64,000 nucleotides of DNA, taken from assembly GCA_963770895.1 (NCBI GenBank), contig CAVYRF010000002.1, positions 4,224,001-4,288,000 on the forward strand, given 5' to 3'. The notes beneath the pieces were generated by a model, which saw only the letters and a list, made by a program, of their open reading frames with translations, ran no database searches and was not told the DNA's origin. The position numbers and the translations under genes were made by a program. This document shows, one piece after another, positions 42,224 through 52,666 of the stretch (position 1 is the stretch's first letter; every line of letters begins with the position of its first letter). This DNA comes from an uncultured Acidobacteriota bacterium (GTDB lineage Bacteria > Acidobacteriota > Thermoanaerobaculia > Multivoradales > UBA5704).

Positions 42224-43282
42224 ATGCAAGGCGAAAAACAAGCACGGGAACAAGAGCTCCTTCGCGCAGTGACGGAGGCGGCTGGGCATCACGGATTACG
42301 CCTGGAACTCCGCGGCCACAGCCCCCGGTTGCCGGAAGGACAAGCCGAGGGCCTGGTGCGCCTACATCATCCTGCGGGGGTGGCCGACCTGGTTACAGAG
42401 GTCAAAACGCAGCTGACCGCCGCCGCCCTGGGACCGGTCTTGGCCAAGATGCGCCGCTACGGCCGGCCGGCGCTCCTGGTCACGGACTACGTCAACCCGA
42501 AGCTGGCCGAGCGGCTCCGCGAGCAGGAGGTGTTCTTCCTGGACGGCGCGGGCAATGCGTTCGTGCGCGATCGCGGCCTCTACGTCTTTGTGACGGGACG
42601 GCGCAACGAGCTGGAGCGGCAGCGGTTTCAACAGCGCGTGCGCGCGTTCCGGCCCAGCGGCTTGAAGCTCATCTTCGCGTTGCTCAGCAGGCCCGAGATG
42701 GTGGGGGCGGACTACCGGACGCTGGCGCAGGCAACGGGGGTGGCTCTCGGGACGGTGCAGTGGGTGATGCGAGACCTTACCGCGGCATCCTTCGTGCGGC
42801 GGGTGGATCGGACCCGCCGCGTGCTGGTGCGCCCGGCGGAACTGCTCGAATCCTGGGCGCAGGGGTATGCGCAGGATCTTCGCCCCCGTCTGCTGTTGGG
42901 CCGGTTCGCCACCGCCGACGTCGGCTGGTGGAAGCAGACCGACCCCCGCAAGTACGGCTGTCTGTGGGGCGGCGAACCCGCGGGCGCCCGGCTGACCGGC
43001 TTCCTGAAACCGGGGACGCTGACCCTGTATGCGGATGCGGTTCCGGCAAAGCTGCTGATCCACCAGCGCTTCAAAAGAGCGGAGGACGGCCAGGTCGAGG
43101 TGCTGAAGAAGTTCTGGCGCTTCGCCGATGCTGGGGAGGAGCGCGGTATGGTGCCGGCCGTCCTCGCCTACGCCGATCTGCTGGCCGTCGGCGACAGCCG
43201 CACCGTGGAGGCCGCGAACCGCCTGTTCGCGGGACAGATCGATGGACCTTTCCGCTCATACCTCGCTCGCGCCGCTGGCTGA
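42224..43282 (+). CDS. Type IV TA AbiEi-family antitoxin (AbiEi_2-like)
   Basis: LVTDYVNPKLAERLRE..FLDGAGNAF, HTH YRTLAQATGVALGTV, WGGEPAG and LAYADLL..GDSRTVEAA. Confidence 0.8.
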   Translation: MQGEKQAREQELLRAVTEAAGHHGLRLELRGHSPRLPEGQAEGLVRLHHPAGVADLVTEVKTQLTAAALGPVLAKMRRYGRPALLVTDYVNPKLAERLREQEVFFLDGAGNAFVRDRGLYVFVTGRRNELERQRFQQRVRAFRPSGLKLIFALLSRPEMVGADYRTLAQATGVALGTVQWVMRDLTAASFVRRVDRTRRVLVRPAELLESWAQGYAQDLRPRLLLGRFATADVGWWKQTDPRKYGCLWGGEPAGARLTGFLKPGTLTLYADAVPAKLLIHQRFKRAEDGQVEVLKKFWRFADAGEERGMVPAVLAYADLLAVGDSRTVEAANRLFAGQIDGPFRSYLARAAG

Positions 43283-43514
43283 GGCGGTCGCGGCGGTGCT
43301 GCGACCGGCATCCGCCGCGGGGATCGAGATCTACATCGCCGGCGCGCTGGCGCGCGACCTTTGGTTGGAGTTTGCCTACGGCATCGATACCGGACGCCGG
43401 CCCGGCGAGCATCAGCGGATGAACGCGCTGGGGTTCGCGGAGGCCACGCGCCTGATTCCCTTGTGCGCTGCTGGCTGCTTGCGGCAGCAAGAGGCCGATG
43501 CTAGTCTAGCTTGA
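43242..43514 (+). pseudogene. Truncated AbiEii-type nucleotidyltransferase toxin
   Basis: IYIAGALARDL..GIDTGRR matches the NTase N-terminus, but the expected TxDxD motif is replaced and the ORF stops at 90 aa. Confidence 0.65.
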
Positions 43515-43556
43515 CGCCATATACGACGTCTCTCAAGTTCAACCCAGGAGCTCATC

Positions 43557-43733
43557 ATGCGCAAGTGCAAGAAACTGGCATTGAACCGCGAAACCCTCCG
43601 CCACCTCGATACCCTGCGGCAAGCGGCCGGAGGGGCCACGGCGGCGACCGCCTGCAACCAGCTCACCTGCGCTTTACACGCTAGTTGCATGGATACGTGC
43701 CCGAAGTTTTGCAAAGGAACCACAGTCTGCTGA
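43557..43733 (+). CDS. RiPP/lanthipeptide-like precursor peptide (58 aa), double-Gly leader, Cys/Thr-rich core
   Basis: CAGGAG RBS. Translation: MRKCKKLALNRETLRHLDTLRQAAGG-ATAATACNQLTCALHASCMDTCPKFCKGTTVC. Below the ORF-track cutoff. Confidence 0.8.
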   Translation: MRKCKKLALNRETLRHLDTLRQAAGGATAATACNQLTCALHASCMDTCPKFCKGTTVC

Positions 43734-44193
43734 CAGTCTTAGGGCCGGGCTGAACGCGCAGGCTCAGGCTCACCGCAGAGCCCAGGCCGTGGCCGCCGGC
43801 AGCCCTGTGCCGGCGGCTTGACGCCGCCCTGTTGGTGGCAACTCCAAGTACGACGTGCTAGCCAGATTCTGACGGTGGGGAGGATCGCGGGGGACGAGGG
43901 CGAACAGGGTGATAAATCGATCCGAGATATCCAGGTTTGAAGCGAGCTGGCCCTAGGCCCTGCGGCAAGAGACCCGAGGCGGCAGCTCCGGGGCGGCCGC
44001 CGGGAGGGCTCCCCTTGTCGTCGCGCTGCGGGCTCGCGGGGCGGCAAGCGGCTTGGCGGTGAGCTGTCTTGCCAGCGGCTCGCCGCATTGCCTCGCCCCA
44101 GAGCGCCGCCAAGTGGACCCACCCGTCAGCCGCCCCTCCCCGGACTGCCAGCGATGGCTCCGGCGGCCGCGCAAGATGGGTGCTCAGTCCGGG

Positions 44194-45627
44194 TCAGTCC
44201 CGGTCCAGCGACCGCAGCGGCGCGCGATTCTCCAGCCGGCGAATGAGCTCTTGCGCCTGCGCTACGGTCGCCGTCTCCTGGAGGGCCGCCTCCCAGAACA
44301 GCCGCAGCGCTGCGAGCGCATCGCGCTCGATTCCCTCGGCCGAGAAAATCGATAGCATCGCCGCGGCCAGCGCCTTCACCTCCGCGGTCCGACCGGCCGC
44401 CAGGTCGATCACCGCGAGCTCGAGCGACACGACCGCCGCGTCGAGGGCATCGTGCCTCTCGACTAGGTAGTCCCGCACCTCCGCCAGTGCCGCTCGCGCC
44501 TCCGCATACCGTCCCTGGCCCTCATCCACACGCGCGCTCAGCCAGGTCACCCGCAGGCTGTCCAGATCGTTGCCGAGGCTGCGCGCGAGATCGCGTGCCT
44601 CCTCCACGCGCGCCCGTGCCTCCTCGAACTTCTTCAGGTGACAGAGGTTCACCGCCAGGTTGAAGGCCACGCACAACCGATCCCGGAGATCGCCGTGCTC
44701 TCCCATCAGGAGCACCGCCTCCTGCAGCGCCCGGAGCGCCCCCGGGACGTCGCCGGCCTGCTCCAGAGCGAAAGCAGCCTTGATGAGAAGCCGGCCCGCC
44801 ACCTCTGGCGGCGCACTGCCGCGAGCCCGTTCCAGCAAGGCAAGCGACTCAGCCGTACGCATCTGGTCGCGGCGCAGCGACGCTTCGAGGTCGAACAGCC
44901 GCCATTCCGGCAGGCGCCCCTCTGGATCGCCGTCTTGCCCGGCCTGCCAAAGTCTCCAGGTCTCCCGCCACTCCGCCTCGGCCTCAAGCAGTTGTCCGGA
45001 AAGCCGCAGACTGTTGGCCAGGAACGCATGCGCCCATCCTGCAAGCCGCTCCTTCCACGCCTGGTTCCCTGGGGCGTTCTGTGCAGCGCGCACCGCCAGC
45101 CGCGAAAGCTCGACCGCTGCGGTGGCGTCGCGCGGCGCCGCCCGGATGCTCGCGCCGCACAACCGCTCGGCGAGGGTCGGAAGCCCCCGTCCGTCCGCCG
45201 TCGCCGGGCCGGCGCTCGCGCCTCGGTCAGCGCTGTCCGGGTCCACGAACGCAGCCGCGAGGACACTGAGCGCAGCGCCGGACGCTGTCTTGAGGTCTGC
45301 CAGAAGATCCTGGTCGCGCAGCCCGGTCTCTTTTCCCCAGTCCATGGGTGCCGACGCTCGCACCTGACCGCCGTCCGACTCCATCAAGGTGCGAACGAGG
45401 CGGATGACGGGCGGCAGGATGCTCAGCGCCACGTCGACCGGCAGCCCCACCGCGGCGATCAGGCGCTCGACCGTCGCATCGGCCGGCTTGAGCTTGCCCT
45501 GCTCGAAACGCAGGATGCTCTCCGCCTCGACACCCGCCCTGGCGCCCAGCTTGACCTGGCTCCAGCGGCGAGAGGCCCGGAGCAGCCGAACCAGGAGCTT
45601 CACGTCCTCCGGCTCCATCCTCCCCAT
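44194..45627 (-). CDS. XRE-HTH plus TPR-like helical-repeat regulator (paralogue A)
   Basis: HTH LVRLLRASRRWSQVKLGARAGV..ILRFEQG and shared family motifs AFLANSLR, LPEWRLFDLEASLRRDQ, WLSARV and VSLELAV. Start uncertain (45618, 45627 or 45645). Confidence 0.8.
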   Translation of the reverse strand: MGRMEPEDVKLLVRLLRASRRWSQVKLGARAGVEAESILRFEQGKLKPADATVERLIAAVGLPVDVALSILPPVIRLVRTLMESDGGQVRASAPMDWGKETGLRDQDLLADLKTASGAALSVLAAAFVDPDSADRGASAGPATADGRGLPTLAERLCGASIRAAPRDATAAVELSRLAVRAAQNAPGNQAWKERLAGWAHAFLANSLRLSGQLLEAEAEWRETWRLWQAGQDGDPEGRLPEWRLFDLEASLRRDQMRTAESLALLERARGSAPPEVAGRLLIKAAFALEQAGDVPGALRALQEAVLLMGEHGDLRDRLCVAFNLAVNLCHLKKFEEARARVEEARDLARSLGNDLDSLRVTWLSARVDEGQGRYAEARAALAEVRDYLVERHDALDAAVVSLELAVIDLAAGRTAEVKALAAAMLSIFSAEGIERDALAALRLFWEAALQETATVAQAQELIRRLENRAPLRSLDRD

Positions 45628-45755
45628 CGTGCCCGGTTCCTCCATGGTTGGTGCACATTCTCTGACGTATGAGGTAACTTTCTTCACCACCAATGGCGCT
45701 CCAGCGGGCGACCACCTCCGGCCGGCTCCGGGGGCGTCAACGAAAGGAGCTTCGC

Positions 45756-46250
45756 ATGCCTCTGTCTCGCCCCCGCCCTCTCTGCATCCTCCTGCTGGTG
45801 CTCGCCCTTACCGCCTTGCCTCAGGCCCTCCTCGCCGCCCCCCGGTCCGAGGCGCCTGAATCCCAGGTGCCGAGCCTCTCCGCTCTGCTCCCCTCGTTCT
45901 GGAACTGGCTGGGCTTCGCCTCGACCGAAACCCGGTGCGGCGCCGACCCAAACGGAGGTCAACAGTGCAACCCGAGCAGCGGTAGTGACCAGCGTCCAAC
46001 CACCCAGCACGTGCGCGTCCTGTCCAGCCGTCCTACCTCCTCCAACAAGGCCTTATCCGGCAGCAACGTCAGGACGGACACCCGTTGCGGTCTCGACCCC
46101 GACGGCGTTGTGCAGTGCACTGATGGATCAAGGCGTCCCACCTGGTCCGGCGGCACCGTCGGGACGGACACCCGCTGCACCGCAGACCCTGACGGCGGCC
46201 TCAAGTGCGCTGCTGGAAGCAGCATCCAGCCTCCAACGCTGCGCCAGTAG
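45756..46250 (+). CDS. Secreted 164-aa precursor with three T[ED]TRCxxDP[ND]GxxxC repeats
   Basis: AAGGAG RBS, signal peptide MPLSRPRPLCILLLVLALTALPQALLA, amphipathic SFWNWL segment, then three motif copies. Confidence 0.82.
   Translation: MPLSRPRPLCILLLVLALTALPQALLAAPRSEAPESQVPSLSALLPSFWNWLGFASTETRCGADPNGGQQCNPSSGSDQRPTTQHVRVLSSRPTSSNKALSGSNVRTDTRCGLDPDGVVQCTDGSRRPTWSGGTVGTDTRCTADPDGGLKCAAGSSIQPPTLRQ
45924..46208 (+). repeat. Three dispersed 45-nt coding repeats
   Basis: 45924-45968 TETRCGADPNGGQQC; 46074-46118 TDTRCGLDPDGVVQC; 46164-46208 TDTRCTADPDGGLKC. Confidence 0.92.
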
Positions 46251-46316
46251 CCGCCATCTAACAGAGGCCCGCTCCCGCGTTCGGTGCTCCGGCGTGGCTG
46301 GTGCCGACCTCATGTC

Positions 46317-47921
46317 TTAATGAGCTTTGGCCTTGAGGTCCGCCGCCGTCTCGAAGAAGGCCAGAAGCCGGCGGGCCTCCGCCACGGTTACCGCCTCCTG
46401 CCGCGCTGCGTCGTGGAACAAGCGCACGGCGATGAGCGCTTCGGGCGCGACGCGCTCCGCGATGAAGGTCTGCACCATGAACTCCGCGAGCACCTTCACC
46501 TTCTGGGTGCGACCCTCCTCAAGGTACAGCACCGCGAGCTCCAGGGACACCATCGCCATCGCCAGGGGGTTCCTGGCGACCGCGTAGGCTCTACGGACGT
46601 GCTCCAGGACGCGGTACGCCTCCTTTCTCTGTCCCAGCCCCGCCGCAACCCGCCCACTCAGCCATTCCATCTTCAGGACATCCAGCTTATTGCCCAAGCT
46701 CTGTGCAACCTGCCTGAGACCGGGCAGTTGCTCCCAGGCCTTCGCGTACTGACCCAGGTGGCACAGGTTGACCGTCAGATTGAAGCCCAACACGCACTGG
46801 TCGCGCAGGGTTCCGGACCTCTTCACCAGGGGCTCCGCCTCGCGCAACGCGGCCACCGCGCCTTCGAGATCGCCAGACTGTTCCAGCGTGAATCCCTTCT
46901 TGACGAGAATCCTCCCCTCAACCTCAGCCGGCGCCGCCGCCTGAACCCTGTCGAGCAGCTCCAGAGCCTCCGCGAACCGCCCCTGGTCGCGCCGCAGCGA
47001 CGCCTCCAGGTCCCAGAGCCGCCACTCCGGGAGGATGCCGTGCGGATCGTCTCCGGCGCTCCAGACGGACCACGCCGCCGCCATTTCCAGGTCCGCCTCG
47101 CGCAGGCGGCTTTGGACCCGCAGGCCGTTGGCGACAAAGGCCCGGGTGAAGCCGCGGAGGCGGCTGCGGAAGCCATGGCCGACGTCTGCGAGCTCTGCGG
47201 CGCGGCCCGCCAGCGATGCGAGGTCCGTGGCAGCCCCCGCCCCCGTCGCGGCCACCTGTGCGCTTTCTTCGGCGAGCCGCTCCGCCATCGCCCACGTCTG
47301 GAGCTCCTCCAGGCTTTCCACGACCAGCTGCCGCTCCCGGTGATCGAAGCCTTGCAGCTCCTGCCAGAGGCGCGCCGCGTCGCGGCGCGCGGCTTCGATC
47401 CGCCGGCGGTGCAGCAGCGCCAGCACGCGCGGTACCACAAGCGCCGCCATCGCGAGGCCCAGCCGCGCCGCGGTCTCGCGGGCCAGCCGCTCGTCGAGGA
47501 GCGTCGGATCCTCCGAGTGACGCTCCGACGCTGACGGGGTGGCGGCCCTGTCCGCCTTCTTGCGGCGCCTCTGCCCCTGGCCGCGCCTGCGCTCGGGCCG
47601 GCCTGGCACCTCGACACCCGATGCCACCGTGGGAGGAAGCACTGCTTCCGGTCCTTCGCTCTCCCCCCGCCGCGGCGCCTCCGGCCGGACCACCGCCTGG
47701 ACTGCCAGGAGCGCCGCGTCGACATCGGCCCGGTTCAGACCCATGTGGCGCGCAAGATCCACCAGCCGTTCGTGGTCCAGCTCTCGGAAGCCGGTCTCGA
47801 AATGACCCAACTGGACCGGGTGAAACCCTTCGGCCGCCGCCAGCTCCTCGCGTGTCCAGCCGGCGGCTTGCCGAAGCCAGCTCAAGGCCAGACTTCTGGA
47901 TGGTGCGACAGCCTTGGGCAT
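46317..47921 (-). CDS. XRE-HTH plus TPR-like helical-repeat regulator (paralogue B)
   Basis: HTH LSWLRQAAGWTREELAAAEG..LGHFETG, then LQTWAMAERL, AFVANGLR, LPEWRLWDLEASLRRDQ, WLSGRV and VSLELAV. GGAGG RBS. Confidence 0.82.
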   Translation of the reverse strand: MPKAVAPSRSLALSWLRQAAGWTREELAAAEGFHPVQLGHFETGFRELDHERLVDLARHMGLNRADVDAALLAVQAVVRPEAPRRGESEGPEAVLPPTVASGVEVPGRPERRRGQGQRRRKKADRAATPSASERHSEDPTLLDERLARETAARLGLAMAALVVPRVLALLHRRRIEAARRDAARLWQELQGFDHRERQLVVESLEELQTWAMAERLAEESAQVAATGAGAATDLASLAGRAAELADVGHGFRSRLRGFTRAFVANGLRVQSRLREADLEMAAAWSVWSAGDDPHGILPEWRLWDLEASLRRDQGRFAEALELLDRVQAAAPAEVEGRILVKKGFTLEQSGDLEGAVAALREAEPLVKRSGTLRDQCVLGFNLTVNLCHLGQYAKAWEQLPGLRQVAQSLGNKLDVLKMEWLSGRVAAGLGQRKEAYRVLEHVRRAYAVARNPLAMAMVSLELAVLYLEEGRTQKVKVLAEFMVQTFIAERVAPEALIAVRLFHDAARQEAVTVAEARRLLAFFETAADLKAKAH

Positions 47922-48507
47922 TGCGCTGGTGTCCTCCAGGGTGACGCCGCGGCGACGACAGCGCCGCCTTGGGACCGGATGTTGCCGCCTTCAGGAGATC
48001 TCGTTCTCGCGCCAGAAATTGCCTGCTTCGAATACGGTATTGATTCTACGCGAATGCTCCTTTCATGCAAGCCTTTGGGCGTGTGGGTCCCAACCATGCG
48101 CCCTGTCTGCCGCAACATCTTCGGTTGCAGGGTGGAGGCACTGCCTGGGCCAGCGCGCGGCTGCCTCGTACGCCCCGTCATGTTCTCTGACGTAGCAGAT
48201 ACCTTTCTTGGCAGGTGGCAGTCGCACTGCCCCTGCACTCGCGTGGACAGCGAACGCTGCGGAGCTTCCTGCCAGCGGACCTTACCCCTGACGTTATGTC
48301 GCAAGAAGATCGTTGTGCCTTGCATCAGAAACACGTGCTGTTTCGTCGATTTTGTTGACCCTGCGTAATTGCTTCTTTCGCGCAAACGACAAGGGCGTTA
48401 GGGTTTCGGCCATGCGCACCGACGCCCCCGACATCCACGATGCCGCGCTCGGGGAGGCAATCGAGCGCGGCGCAGGTCACGGGGCGCTTTGACAGGAGGG
48501 GCATTCT

Positions 48508-49221
48508 TTGGCTAACGCGCACGACATGCCGGAGCGCAAAGCCCGGCTCGGGGAGGGGGGCGGTCCGGATGGTGAGACGGCCCATCCCGATCCCAGGAGT
48601 GCCGGCGCCAGACACGTCGAGATCGGCCTGATGGCGCGGCTGCTGACCGGCCACGCGCAGGACGAGGAGGTCCATCAGCGCCTGCTGCCCCACATGGTCG
48701 GCCAGTGTCCTGAGTGCCAGCGCTTGCTTGCCGGGCTGGAGGACCTGCGCTGTGAGGCGGCGGCGCCGGACGTCCTGATTGCCGCGACCGAATGGCCGGC
48801 GGCGCCCGGCCTGTGGCAGGGGCTGGCGCCGCTCTCTTTCGACGCGCAGCTGCGGGCCGCCGCGGCGGAGGAAACCCTTCACACCTGGGGACTCTGCCGG
48901 CTGCTCCAGGTCAAGAGCGGCGGCGAGGCGCGCGAGCATCCCGTTGCGGCTGGCCGGCTTGCCCAGCTGGCCCTGGTGATCTCCGAGCATCTGGCTCCCG
49001 GCTACGACTCCGACTGGGTGCGCGACCTGCGGGCGCTGTCGCTGGCCTGCCTGGGCAACGCCCGCCGCCTGATGGCCGAACCGGGCAGCGCGGCGGACGC
49101 GTTTGCGGCGGCGAGGGTCGAGTGCCAGGCGGGCACCGGCGACCCGGCGGTCGAAGCCGAGGTGCTGGTGCTCGAAGCCCTGCTGCTGCGCGACCCATCC
49201 ACGCCCCATCTTGGCTTATGA
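48508..49221 (+). CDS. Zn-finger-like (HxxxxCxxC) plus partial TPR-like protein, probably truncated family member
   Basis: AGGAGG RBS with TTG start, LLPHMVGQCPECQR, LHTWGLCRLL and DLRALSLACLGNARRL. Ends just after LEALLLRD, where the paralogues continue. Confidence 0.65.
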   Translation: MANAHDMPERKARLGEGGGPDGETAHPDPRSAGARHVEIGLMARLLTGHAQDEEVHQRLLPHMVGQCPECQRLLAGLEDLRCEAAAPDVLIAATEWPAAPGLWQGLAPLSFDAQLRAAAAEETLHTWGLCRLLQVKSGGEAREHPVAAGRLAQLALVISEHLAPGYDSDWVRDLRALSLACLGNARRLMAEPGSAADAFAAARVECQAGTGDPAVEAEVLVLEALLLRDPSTPHLGL

Positions 49222-50528
49222 GGACATCGCCCATGGCGCGAAATCGCAGTTACGAGCGCGGCGCAGCCTTCCCTGGCGAGACGCCGCGGTATCCCTTTCT
49301 TGCCGCGGGGCGCGACCCTGGGGGCGCGACCCCGATGGCCGATCTAGTGGCCCGGGCGCAGCAGGCCGCGGAGCTGGTCATGGAGCTGATGGCCATGCAG
49401 CGGACGGACCGCCTGCAGGCCGCACGGCACGAGACGCGGTTCCACCGCGTCGCCCTGCTCACGCTGCTTAACCTGGAGGCCGAAAGTGCGCTGCTGCAGG
49501 CGCGCGGCCGCGACGTGGGCGAACAGCAAGCCGAAGCCGCGACGGTCCTGGCCGCCTGCCTGCCGCGCGATCCGCAGGGCCGCGTCGGACGGGCGGGAGC
49601 GCTGGCGCACTGGCTGCTCGGCAAGGCCCGTCTCCACCGTGGCGACCTGGCGGGCGCGGCGCAATCGTTTGCGGAGATGGTCGCGTTCCTGGACGACCCC
49701 GATCAACCCAGCGAAGAAAAAGCGCTAGCCGCCGCCGGCTGGGCGCAGGTAAAGCAGCAGGTGGGCGCCTGGGACGAGGCCGTGGCGCACTATCAGCAGG
49801 CGGCCTTCGCTTTTGCGGACGCCAGAGCGGCCCTGCCCACCGCGGCCTGCCTGGCGGAAATCGGCTTCATCCTGCGTGCGACCAACGGCGACCTGCTGGT
49901 CGCGCGGCGCAACCTGGAGCGTGCCTGGAAGTTGCTGGACCCCGCGCTCGCCCCGACGGTGGCGGCCCGCGTCGCCCTTGGCTGCGCCGAGATCGAGGCC
50001 CTGCTGGCCGGAGACGCCGAAAGCCTGTGGCTGGAGCGCGCGCATAGCCTTTATCCCCTGCCGGCGCAGCCCTGCGAAGAGCTGGCCCGCGCCTGGAGCG
50101 AAGGCCGCATCGCCACCGCGGCGGGACGCTATGGCGAGGCCGAGCCGCTGCTGCAAGGGGTGCGCTTGCAACTCCTTTCGCTGGGGAGCCTGGCCGAGGC
50201 GGTGACGGTCTCCTGCGACCACCTGACCCTGCGGCTCGAAGCGGCGCAGCCGCCGCACGTCGATGCCCTTGCCGATGCCCTGGACAAGGCGTTTCCCCAC
50301 TCTGACGGCGCGACCTGGGCTGGCGCGCTGCGGGAGCTGGCCGAGACCGCGGCGGCGCGGGGACGCGATGCCTACTACATTGCCGTGCAGCTGCTGGTCG
50401 GGCGCCTGGCAGCTCAGGCACCGGTCTCGGGCCGGCCCGATCTGTTGCCGCCCCTGCGCGCCCTGACCGACCGGCTGCTGCGGAACCGCGGCGAGTTCGA
50501 AGATCCGCTGGGCGCCGTGCCCTCGTGA
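49218..50528 (+). CDS. TPR-like helical-repeat protein (divergent relative)
   Basis: ATGA overlap with the upstream gene. AHWLLGKARLHRGDLAGA, GAWDEAVAHYQQA and WSEGRIATAAGRYGEAE. Confidence 0.7.
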   Translation: MRTSPMARNRSYERGAAFPGETPRYPFLAAGRDPGGATPMADLVARAQQAAELVMELMAMQRTDRLQAARHETRFHRVALLTLLNLEAESALLQARGRDVGEQQAEAATVLAACLPRDPQGRVGRAGALAHWLLGKARLHRGDLAGAAQSFAEMVAFLDDPDQPSEEKALAAAGWAQVKQQVGAWDEAVAHYQQAAFAFADARAALPTAACLAEIGFILRATNGDLLVARRNLERAWKLLDPALAPTVAARVALGCAEIEALLAGDAESLWLERAHSLYPLPAQPCEELARAWSEGRIATAAGRYGEAEPLLQGVRLQLLSLGSLAEAVTVSCDHLTLRLEAAQPPHVDALADALDKAFPHSDGATWAGALRELAETAAARGRDAYYIAVQLLVGRLAAQAPVSGRPDLLPPLRALTDRLLRNRGEFEDPLGAVPS

Positions 50529-52666
50529 GCGCCCCTGACTCCGCATCTGCCGAAGCCTGTCCTGCGAGCGGTGCTGCGCGCACGCCCGACCAGGACCGAC
50601 CTTTGCGAATGGGCACTGGCATGGGACCTCATCGCAACCGGCCCGGTGCTGCCCCGGCAGCCGAGGTGCAGGGGACATGCACCAAGCGTCCACCGTTGGG
50701 CCTGGCGCTTTCCCTTTTGCGGCTCACCATGGGGTGGTCTCAAACCGATCTTTCCAAGGCCAGCGGCATCGTGATCAGCCAGATATCGCAATACGAAACG
50801 GGCAAAGCACGTTTGACTCAGGCTCGCTTTCATCACTTCGCCGCGGTGATGGGCGCCGCGGAGGGACTGGGCGAGTGCGCAGTAGCGACCTGCGCGCTGT
50901 TGTCTGCCGTATCCAGCCCGGCGGACTCTGTTTCGCCAGGCGGTCTTTCCCGCGACGAGCGGCAGCAGGTCAACGAGTTCACATTAAAAATGTTGCCTGC
51001 GCTGGCGGAACTTGTGCAGGAGCACGCCTCCGCAACGATCCTGATGCGGCGCGCCGAAGTGGCGCAGCTGGAAGCAGATGCACATTGGCGAGTGCTGGTG
51101 ACGCTCAGCCAAAGGGAACGGCGTCAACGATTGGAAACCGCTCTGCCTCTACAAACCTGGGCCATGTGCCTGCGCCTGTGCGACGCGAGCGTCGCCGCCG
51201 GTGCTCACAGTGTCACAGAATCCATGCAGCTTGCTGAGCTGTCCTTGCGTGCGGCCCAACTGGCGCAGGGTGACGCTGGCGGGCTGCTGCGCTTGCAGGG
51301 CTACGCACGCGCATTCCTTGCAAATGCTCATCGGCTATGGGGAGATCTGGCGGCGGCCGATGCCGAGTTCGCTGCGGCAACGGGACAGTGGGGTGAAGGT
51401 AATCAGGCCGCGGAATACACGCTTCCGGAATGGCGGCTCCTCGACTTGGAATCATCGCTCCGCCTTGCCCAAAAGGCTTGGCCTGCCACGGTGCGACTGC
51501 TCGACCGGGCCATTGCTCTTGCTCCCGCAAGCGAAATTGGCCGGCTGCTGGTCAAGAAAGCGACGGCTTTACGGCTCGCCGGCCAGGTCGACGATGCGCT
51601 CGCTTCGCTGGACGCGGCGGCGCCCCTGGTCGCGTCGCTGCCAGAAGTGCAGTGGATGGTGCAGTATCACCAGGTTGCGTGTTTGTGCCAGACAGGGCGC
51701 TATCGAGAGGCCGGCGAGTGCCTGCAGACCGTAGGTGGTGCGCTTGCCGGCGAGTCTACTTTGGAAATCATCAGGCGATTGTGGCTGACGGCACGCGTGA
51801 CCGCGGGCCAGGGCGATCGGCGACAAGCGATCGCCGATTTGGAATGGGTGCGTAGGGAACTCATGCCGTTCGCCGCTCGCTACGAGTCAGTCCTGGTGTC
51901 GATCGAGCTGGCGATTTTCCACCTCGACGATAGAGAGTGGAGCTCGAAGATTCGCGGCTTGGTGCAAGACATCTTGGAAACAGTGAAATCAAGATGGGGC
52001 TCGCGAGGCCTGGCAGCCAGCCTTGGTGAGTTATGTCAGTCGGCTGAGAAGCTATGGCAGCTGCACGAAGACCTGGAGCTTTTGAGGGTGGAGGACTGGG
52101 TCTTCGAACCCTTGACGACGGACGGTAGCGAGCACAGGGCGCACATCCCCCGCTTGGAACAGGCCGATACGGTCTCGATTCGCGACGAATTGAGCGTCCT
52201 GGTGCGCCTTTTGCGCGCAGTCCCTGGGTTTAGCCAGGACGCGATGGGCGCCAGAGCGTCGATCGACCGCACTACGATCAGCCGCTACGAGACCGGCGAC
52301 ATGATCCCCTCGCGGGCGCATCTCGCGCGCCTGGGCGATGCTGCCGGTATTTCACTGCCGTTTTTGGAGGGCGTGTTGCTGCCGGTAGTCCGCCTTATGT
52401 GCGTGAAGAGGGCCTGTTTGCACAGATCCTGGTTGCTGGCACAGCAAGCTGATGAGGTGGCTGCCGCGTTCGATCGGCAAATGGTGGCGACCCTGCGCGC
52501 AGGCATCGCCACGTTTGCAGCGGCGCTCCGGTGTCGGCCTGCTGTTGCTGCTCAACCAGGCCGGACACCGCCAGCCGGGTTGGGTTGCGCTAAGGCTGGC
52601 GAGTGGGCTGGCCCGGCTGGGCCAGCTGGGCCAGGAGGTCGCGCCAGGCGTGGCCGCGGTGGCTGA
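50525..52666 (+). CDS. XRE-HTH, TPR-like region and second XRE-HTH (paralogue C)
   Basis: GTGA overlap. N-terminal HTH LSLLRLTMGWSQTDLSKASG..ISQYETG, LPEWRLLDLESSLR, and C-terminal HTH LVRLLRAVPGFSQDAMGARAS..ISRYETG. Confidence 0.75.
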   Translation: MSAPDSASAEACPASGAARTPDQDRPLRMGTGMGPHRNRPGAAPAAEVQGTCTKRPPLGLALSLLRLTMGWSQTDLSKASGIVISQISQYETGKARLTQARFHHFAAVMGAAEGLGECAVATCALLSAVSSPADSVSPGGLSRDERQQVNEFTLKMLPALAELVQEHASATILMRRAEVAQLEADAHWRVLVTLSQRERRQRLETALPLQTWAMCLRLCDASVAAGAHSVTESMQLAELSLRAAQLAQGDAGGLLRLQGYARAFLANAHRLWGDLAAADAEFAAATGQWGEGNQAAEYTLPEWRLLDLESSLRLAQKAWPATVRLLDRAIALAPASEIGRLLVKKATALRLAGQVDDALASLDAAAPLVASLPEVQWMVQYHQVACLCQTGRYREAGECLQTVGGALAGESTLEIIRRLWLTARVTAGQGDRRQAIADLEWVRRELMPFAARYESVLVSIELAIFHLDDREWSSKIRGLVQDILETVKSRWGSRGLAASLGELCQSAEKLWQLHEDLELLRVEDWVFEPLTTDGSEHRAHIPRLEQADTVSIRDELSVLVRLLRAVPGFSQDAMGARASIDRTTISRYETGDMIPSRAHLARLGDAAGISLPFLEGVLLPVVRLMCVKRACLHRSWLLAQQADEVAAAFDRQMVATLRAGIATFAAALRCRPAVAAQPGRTPPAGLGCAKAGEWAGPAGPAGPGGRARRGRGG

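Follow-up and report, generated by a model that had tools for sequence, protein, structure and literature searches.

Dispersed libraries of lanthipeptide precursors have been described mainly from marine cyanobacteria, and from a different enzyme class than the one considered here. In these systems (ProcA/ProcM and SyncA/SyncM) one class II synthetase, LanM, serves many dispersed precursors that share a GG-ended, Nif11-type leader and carry diverse cores. A total of 79 precursors have been reported for the single enzyme SyncM (PMC12328550), which forms rings in both directions (PMC8524650), and the prochlorosin precursor genes lie far from their enzyme (PMC7268733). A class I type of precursor with an LxLxKx5L leader, often ending in Gly-Gly and accompanied by a C39 protease, has been described in Bacteroidetes (Walker et al. 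2020, PMC7268733). In Thermoanaerobaculia, lanthipeptide chemistry has been shown experimentally for the tha and the clusters, in which LanM and a GMC oxidoreductase act on a clustered precursor with a leader of the mersacidin/lichenicidin type (ThaA and TheA); this work, the only one on Thermoanaerobaculia lanthipeptides that we found, treats LanM and class III clusters (PMC13083261). Outside subscription journals and bioRxiv supplements, our search found no account of a library of dispersed class I precursors from Acidobacteriota, and work on class I lanthipeptides of Pedobacter and myxobacteria may hold multi-precursor cases.

Here we analyzed a 64,000-nucleotide stretch (the window, G000:C2:4224001-4288000) from the genome of an uncultured member of the Thermoanaerobaculia (hereafter G000; 8.16 Mb in three contigs, 70.7% GC). 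A short open reading frame at positions 43557 to 43733 of the forward strand probably encodes, judging from its sequence, a LanA-type precursor of a class I lanthipeptide that is matured in trans by the products of unlinked genes; we put the probability of this reading at about 80%. The leader resembles the LxLxKx5L class I family (PMC7268733) in motif shape, in its GG end and in its LanB, LanC and C39 partners, and three of its paralogues pass the family model NF038153. It differs from that family in having Arg for Lys, in its Thermoanaerobaculia host and in precursor genes that are unclustered. The precursor itself falls below the cut-off of NF038153, and should therefore be considered a divergent variant rather than a certified member. 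Since the precursors are unclustered, the seven-gene window described in PMC7268733 would not see them.

The prochlorosin-like pattern, with many dispersed precursors, a conserved leader, diverse cores and presumably one enzyme, is found here as in ProcA/ProcM and SyncA/SyncM. Those systems are of class II, with LanM and a Nif11 leader, whereas here the enzyme would be of class I; the leader has only 26 residues, and the peptide is without a Pfam match at E 0.01. The predicted rings also look directional, with Ser/Thr before Cys, unlike the rings formed in both directions by SyncM (PMC8524650). Compared with NisB/NisC and MibB-type systems (PDB 4WD9, 6M7Y, 5EHK and 9G04), both LanB domains and the LanC motifs are alike, but the FxLD leader is missing, the genes are unclustered, and there are about 95 candidate substrates instead of one. 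The tha and the systems (PMC13083261) come from the same bacterial class, and they match the two LanM loci of G000 rather than this leader family.

The precursor gene and its leader family

The reading frame encodes 58 amino acids followed by TGA and is preceded by a ribosome-binding site, AGGAG (43546 to 43550), read from the sequence 6 nt 5′ of the ATG. The 26-residue leader (43557 to 43634) ends in Gly-Gly at residues 25 and 26, a predicted C39 cleavage site, and contains an LxLxRx5L motif at residues 7 to 17 (43575 to 43607), which is the Arg variant of the class I leader motif. The 32-residue core (43635 to 43730) holds six Cys, six Thr and one Ser, with Cys spacings of 5, 6, 4, 4 and 6, and its last residue is Cys. 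The original prediction had described the frame, its ribosome-binding site, leader, Gly-Gly and core, with six Cys spaced by 4 to 6 residues, seven Ser/Thr and a C-terminal Cys, just as we find them. GC3 is 0.74 against 0.53 for GC1 and 0.58 for GC2, a pattern typical of coding sequence, although the GC3 value ranks only at the 10th percentile among the members of the family described below. Cys richness alone is weak evidence, as 1357 of the 108811 reading frames of the genome end with at least six Cys in 35 amino acids. In NCBIfam the sole match of the precursor is NF038153 (lant_leader_L1a), at 12.6 to 13 bits against a cut-off of 22 bits. A contig of one sequencing run (type unstated) spans 43597 to 43837 with zero differences; the match is not independent, because the run may be the source sample.

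A profile of the leader, iterated over the 108811 stop-bounded frames of the genome, recovered 94 open reading frames with the leader and at least two Cys, scoring 14 to 46 bits, while reversed frames reached at most 10.8 bits. Five Cys-poor frames were added by hand, giving a family of 99. The score of the precursor in the window (44 bits) is circular, because it served as a seed. NF038153, a curated model that does not depend on the profile seeds, has 43 matches in the genome at E≤10; family members account for 40 of these, and three of them score above the cut-off. The leader resemblance is not due to chance.

It had been proposed to look for dispersed leader paralogues in the genome, and these do exist: the 99 members are spread over about 90 places (89 to 90 merged regions) among unrelated genes. 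A ribosome site of the form GGAG, GAGG or AGGA is found at the same place in 84 of them. The leader ends in GG in 59 paralogues, in AG in 26 and in GA in eight. An alignment of 91 of the 99 paralogues, from which eight short, Cys-poor or atypical rows were omitted, gives the leader consensus MKKxxxKLxLxRETLxxLxxxxLxxxAGG, with cores that are barely conserved except for Cys. Arg is the usual residue in the motif; its strict Lys form occurs in five of the 99 precursors, and the FxLD motif in none. The neighbors of the precursors, among 121 of 159 genes scanned (91 against NCBIfam and 54 against Pfam, 30 of the latter new), are a mix of housekeeping, transport and mobile genes. Comparing flanks with flanks by BLAST yielded only overlaps between tandem genes and a few short pairs, and no shared mobile flank or upstream motif that would account for the dispersal.

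Candidate maturation enzymes in the genome and in its relatives

Genome-wide domain searches placed no match to PF05147, PF04738, PF14028, PF13575, PF03412, YcaO, SPASM or radical SAM inside the 64-kb window, which bears out the earlier remark that no gene for LanB, LanC, LanM, a radical SAM enzyme or a C39 transporter lies there. The description of the precursor as an orphan is thus right for its window but not for the genome, where LanB, LanC, a C39 exporter and the paralogues are encoded elsewhere; the genome-wide survey for lanthionine synthetases and C39 peptidases that had been suggested does find a full-length LanB, LanC, LanM and a C39 exporter.

The single full-length LanB (C2:5180050-5183583, 1177 aa) matches PF04738 with 550 bits and PF14028 with 236 bits. 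The residues at positions corresponding to the catalytic ones of NisB are present in this protein and invariant in 14 orthologues. It aligns over both domains with solved class I dehydratases (E 6e-47 to 5EHK and 2e-24 to NisB), and two tRNA-Glu genes are found in the genome. The LanC gene C2:5178606-5180015 (469 aa) faces LanB in convergent orientation among housekeeping genes; its product contains GxAHG, WCYG and CHG, and so retains the catalytic His and the Cys/Cys/His zinc ligands described for NisC (PMC9889658). This pair is 0.91 Mb from the precursor in the window, and the nearest family precursor is more than 16 kb from it. A C39-ABC exporter (C2:2970253-2972568), with C39 and ABC domains and the Cys and His motifs, lies 1.3 Mb from the precursor. 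A predicted complex of LanB residues 1 to 800 with the precursor scored 0.51 against 0.00 for the best control, a weak value that may owe something to likeness remembered from the existing NisB structures. Of 157 solved complexes 116 scored at this mark or better, as did two of 215 mismatches, but scores of 0.60 or under were held by only 18 of the 157 and by both mismatches; the runs share at least 38% of contacts, with a partner pLDDT of at least 39.

Further Lan-type genes comprise a Lant_dehydr_N protein (890 aa), a lone Lant_dehydr_C match and eight more LanC-like genes, and the genome also contains two LanM genes, two kinase-LanC fusions (LanKC-like and LanL-like), one YcaO gene and 31 radical SAM domains. 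Because of these other enzymes, the enzyme assignment for this single peptide is made by inference from its family. Which of the LanC paralogues is the cognate of the cluster LanCs is left unsettled by the LanC tree, in which 11 of 25 inner branches are open.

In relatives, the same leader family is found next to class I genes. Four loci in three relatives join precursor, LanC and LanB, three of the four with an exporter: a precursor-LanC-LanB-LanT cluster in G024, two LanT-precursor-LanC-LanB clusters in G021, one of which has six precursors, and a LanB-two precursors-LanC-LanC cluster in G019. In G002 and G001 one precursor lies a few kb from a LanC/LanB pair. The remaining LanB loci, among the 20 read in relatives, showed no precursor in the stretch read. 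The usual clustering of precursor, lanB and lanC is thus seen for the leader family in G019, G021 and G024, though not for the precursor in the window; such an arrangement is customary rather than a chemical requirement. For the exporters encoded next to LanB in G024, G021 (two) and G015, the best match in G000 is C2:2970253 (58 to 60%, the next being 36 to 41%), so that G000 holds all parts of the relatives' cluster at three distant places. In addition, the region G000:C2:2967235-2974562 contains LanC, the C39-ABC exporter and a GAF-HlyD protein without a precursor, and is a precursor-less remnant of the ancestral cluster.

We further compared the occurrence of precursors and enzymes among 31 genomes (G000 and 30 relatives); these genomes are kin, so the counts overstate independence. 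Precursors are found in 19 of the 31, with 1 to 98 matches each and many genomes carrying 20 to 75 copies, all counts being lower bounds with 150 candidates scored per genome. The library is large and widespread in the group. LanB with at least 355 bits is present in 18 of the 19 precursor-bearing genomes and in one of the 12 others (G023, with a LanB of 477 bits and no precursor found). In the nineteenth precursor-bearing genome, G005 (84% complete), an N-terminal piece of LanB with 69% identity lies at a contig end. The exporter, at 57% or more, occurs in at least 17 of the 19 and in none of the 12. LanM is present in 14 of 19 against 3 of 12, and was not found in G018 (100% complete, 38 precursors) or G021 (98% complete). 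YcaO is present in eight of the 19 and in two of the 12, and the search found none in the nine same-genus genomes, all of which have precursors. The precursors track full-length LanB better than LanM or YcaO.

These counts bear on the alternative that the peptide is a lanthipeptide made by LanM, as the prochlorosins are, or by a LanKC- or LanL-like enzyme. GG leaders are typical of class II, the genome has two intact-looking LanM genes, one of them 40 kb from the precursor in the window and 3.5 kb from a family member, and a kinase-LanC fusion lacks a precursor of its own. Yet next to each LanM gene lies a precursor of its own, whose leader is of another kind, the mersacidin/lichenicidin type, LanM was not found in five of the 19 precursor-bearing genomes and is present in three of the 12 without precursors, and the leader family sits in LanB/LanC clusters in relatives. 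This alternative is improbable, with comparative evidence arguing against a ProcM-like LanM. The paralogues, the linkage and the co-occurrence all support the original prediction that, as with the prochlorosins, a promiscuous enzyme encoded elsewhere modifies this lanthipeptide-type precursor; the machinery is most likely class I LanB/LanC with a C39 exporter rather than a ProcM-like LanM.

The locus after argF and orthologues of the peptide

Around the precursor lie argF, an AbiEi-type gene and a stub of 90 aa, together with two HTH-TPR genes on the opposite strand. The AbiEi-type gene, the stub and the convergent HTH-TPR gene are local context and do not belong to the peptide system. The AbiEi-type antitoxin gene (42224 to 43282, forward strand) matches PF09952 with E 5.5e-34. 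The stub (43242 to 43514, forward strand) is without a Pfam match at 1e-7 and stops some 40 nt short of the start codon of the precursor; from its position and a motif, it is presumably the start of a truncated AbiEii-type partner. The AbiEi partner is also shortened in G005 (G005:C240), and 247 bp of the antitoxin gene have a second copy, 93% identical, at G000:C2:1899417-1899663. On the reverse strand, an HTH-TPR gene (44194 to 45693; Pfam HTH_31 and TPR_12) is convergent with the precursor. It is one of a series of such genes, in both orientations, at 44194 to 52666; the genome holds about 36 HTH-TPR genes in all. It had been suggested that the precursor is a regulatory target of the adjacent HTH-TPR proteins. 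The genes are tail-to-tail, and HTH-TPR genes lie within 1, 2.5 and 5 kb of 2, 3 and 3 of the 90 precursor loci, against 3.0, 4.2 and 5.3 expected; since they are not enriched beside precursors, such regulation is unsupported.

Two repeats lie between the precursor and the HTH-TPR gene and are absent from the precursor flanks compared. One of about 200 bp (43942 to 44167) has at least six other copies in the genome at 88 to 94%, and one of about 100 bp (43855 to 43953) has two other copies at about 85%. They are REP- or MITE-like, and several copies seem to be near HTH-TPR genes.

No orthologue of the precursor follows argF at the corresponding loci of eight relatives. In G005, of the same genus, a different family precursor is found right after argF on the opposite strand (G005:C856, L139:3422-3600). 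The site after argF is variable and has captured a precursor twice.

Could this be a once-functional member that is no longer expressed, a passenger behind a decayed toxin-antitoxin operon? The precursor gene could be silent, because its GC3 is low for the family, its neighbor is truncated and its position is a variable spot, and our scan called neither a sigma-70-like promoter at the gene nor a terminator downstream. However, the frame, the ribosome-binding site, the leader and the Gly-Gly are intact, and orthologues keep the Cys and Thr residues while other positions change. Three full-length matches were found in a set of 5.8 billion proteins, at 83, 76 and 72% in the alignment and either unnamed or annotated as hypothetical protein. 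The four aligned sequences share every one of the six Cys and six Thr of the core, and the single Ser shifts by one residue. In the core, 6 of the 7 Ser/Thr and 6 of the 6 Cys positions are conserved compared with 8 of the 19 other positions (P = 0.005 for Cys and Ser/Thr together; P = 0.06 for Ser/Thr alone). A scaffold with this core is therefore conserved somewhere, and the substitution pattern points to selection on it in the recent past. Loss of expression thus seems improbable too, about as much so as maturation by LanM. No close orthologue was found in 91 genomes of the same family (best 62 to 67% over part of the length), nor, by pattern scans, among the matches listed. A Cys at leader position 4 (43566 to 43568) is invariant in the four orthologous sequences and rare in the family.

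Ring placement and proposed maturation

The cores of the family consist of 16% Cys, 15% Thr and 8% Ser, with a median of about four Cys per core and few charged residues (Arg 1.9%, compared with 8.0% in the proteome). The number of Ser plus Thr follows the number of Cys (Spearman 0.70), and in 93 of 95 cores there are at least as many Ser plus Thr as Cys. Ser/Thr residues are found five residues before a Cys 146 times in the 95 cores of G000, against 102 expected (z 5.3; Thr alone z 4.0, Ser alone z 3.2), and five residues after a Cys 70 times against 73 expected, which is no enrichment. The same excess is seen in 69 cores of relatives (142 against 104 expected, z 4.9), whose precursors were chosen because they resemble this peptide or lie close to LanB. 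When each Cys is assigned a separate Ser/Thr partner two to eight residues upstream, 402 of the 417 Cys in G000 cores can be paired, against 345±6 in shuffled cores and 264 with downstream partners. In the relatives, 382 of 396 Cys are paired upstream against 335±5, with a smaller excess downstream (280 against 266±6). The shuffles kept Cys positions fixed and shuffled the other residues, and both signals remain after trimming to the Cys span. For the core in the window, just two complete assignments satisfy the upstream rule, and they differ only in whether T29 or T30 takes part in the last ring, and three of the six predicted rings have the +5 spacing. The placement of Ser/Thr relative to Cys is thus a lanthionine-like pattern, a statistical footprint of the kind that thioether rings would leave.

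A disulfide-rich or metal-binding secreted peptide, which would use the GG leader and the exporter but form no thioether rings, was the other possibility raised in the original prediction. The core in the window has an even number of Cys (six), even counts are somewhat more common in the family (56 of 95 cores, P = 0.10), and a Cys-x3-Cys spacing is enriched. Odd counts are nevertheless common (39 of the 95 G000 cores and 30 of the 69 cores of relatives), which is unlike a pure disulfide family. Together with the fixed register of Ser/Thr on the N-terminal side of Cys and in numbers that follow those of Cys, the Thr residues invariant among orthologues and the link of the family to LanB/LanC in relatives, this makes the disulfide reading slightly less probable still than a silent gene. 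Least probable is a substrate of YcaO (azoles) or of a radical SAM/SPASM enzyme (a sacti- or ranthipeptide), for although the genome has one YcaO and five SPASM domains and a radical SAM gene adjoins one paralogue, the distribution of YcaO given above speaks against it, and one-to-one pairing of each Cys with an upstream Ser/Thr is what lanthionine chemistry predicts.

Under class I maturation in trans, the conserved LxLxRETLxxL leader would be bound by the single full-length LanB, which would dehydrate Ser/Thr residues of the core using Glu-tRNA(Glu). LanC, most simply the product of C2:5178606-5180015, would then add each Cys to a dehydro residue on its N-terminal side, giving a ladder of up to six overlapping (methyl)lanthionine rings (T2-C7, T5-C12, T11-C18, S17-C22, T21-C26 and T29 or T30-C32, in core numbering). 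The exporter encoded at C2:2970253-2972568 would cut after Gly-Gly, and the exported product would be a nearly neutral, polycyclic peptide of 32 residues with a mass near 3155 Da. Some 95 paralogues whose cores are unrelated would depend on this one set of proteins, and an ancestral precursor-LanC-LanB-LanT cluster may have been broken up as copies of the precursor gene accumulated. Cores so close to neutral do not suggest a simple cationic antibiotic acting on membranes; by analogy, the products are most likely a diversified set of secreted antagonists or signals, a role that is the weakest step of this scheme.

We lean, with reservation, towards regarding the system as a class I counterpart of the prochlorosins. 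One LanB and one exporter would serve up to about 95 scattered precursors with directional, overlapping +5 rings, satellite LanCs (two of them zinc-less) would give substrate-specific cyclization, and the precursor in the window would be a six-ring member with a scaffold conserved across environments rather than varying neutrally. That one LanB serves all paralogues is itself inferred from the sequences. If so, a dehydratase of class I, whose members are mostly studied with one or a few substrates, handles about 95 polycyclic cores that are unrelated to one another, more than the 79 precursors reported for SyncM (PMC12328550), and would offer a ready tool for peptide-library engineering as well as a direct test of how ring topology is chosen in class I. 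Mining based on clusters (an enzyme plus seven genes) would then miss almost all lanthipeptides of an abundant uncultured group, and a second, non-cyanobacterial system would be at hand for asking what diversity-generating peptide libraries are for. The single reading frame in the window, by itself, is an ordinary member of this library.

Some family members have further genes beside them. Five precursors adjoin stand-alone LanC-like genes. Three loci (G000:C2:3320476-3323265, G000:C1:1011293-1012990 and G000:C1:1567036-1568463) contain precursors with their own downstream stand-alone LanC gene or genes but without LanB, and a ten-Cys precursor is followed by two tandem LanCs. Two LanC-like proteins without zinc ligands (G000:C1:1580170-1581435 and G000:C2:2707854-2709035) are 74% identical; they keep the GxAHG His, and their Cys/Cys/His are replaced by WAYA and IG[FY]G. 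Each of the two genes is directly upstream of a Cys-free, His-containing family precursor. Proteins of this kind were found in three of 151 genomes; beside the homologue in G003 the neighboring precursor has three Cys, and beside that in G042 no precursor was found within 1.5 kb. A constant pairing of zinc-less LanC-like genes with Cys-free, His-rich precursors therefore fits both G000 loci and is broken by G003 and G042. These proteins possibly form a non-thioether cross-link or act as a non-catalytic partner.

One family precursor (G000:C2:4970417-4970578) has a co-directional GMC oxidoreductase gene (L118:54-1754) 292 bp downstream. GMC enzymes install thiazoles in the tha and the clusters (PMC13083261), and the gene beside this precursor may encode a tailoring enzyme or be a chance neighbor. 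Three other precursors (L045, L049 and L052) are co-directional with adjacent genes for CocE/NonD-family hydrolases, of which BLAST finds four genome-wide; leader trimming is a possible role for these hydrolases.
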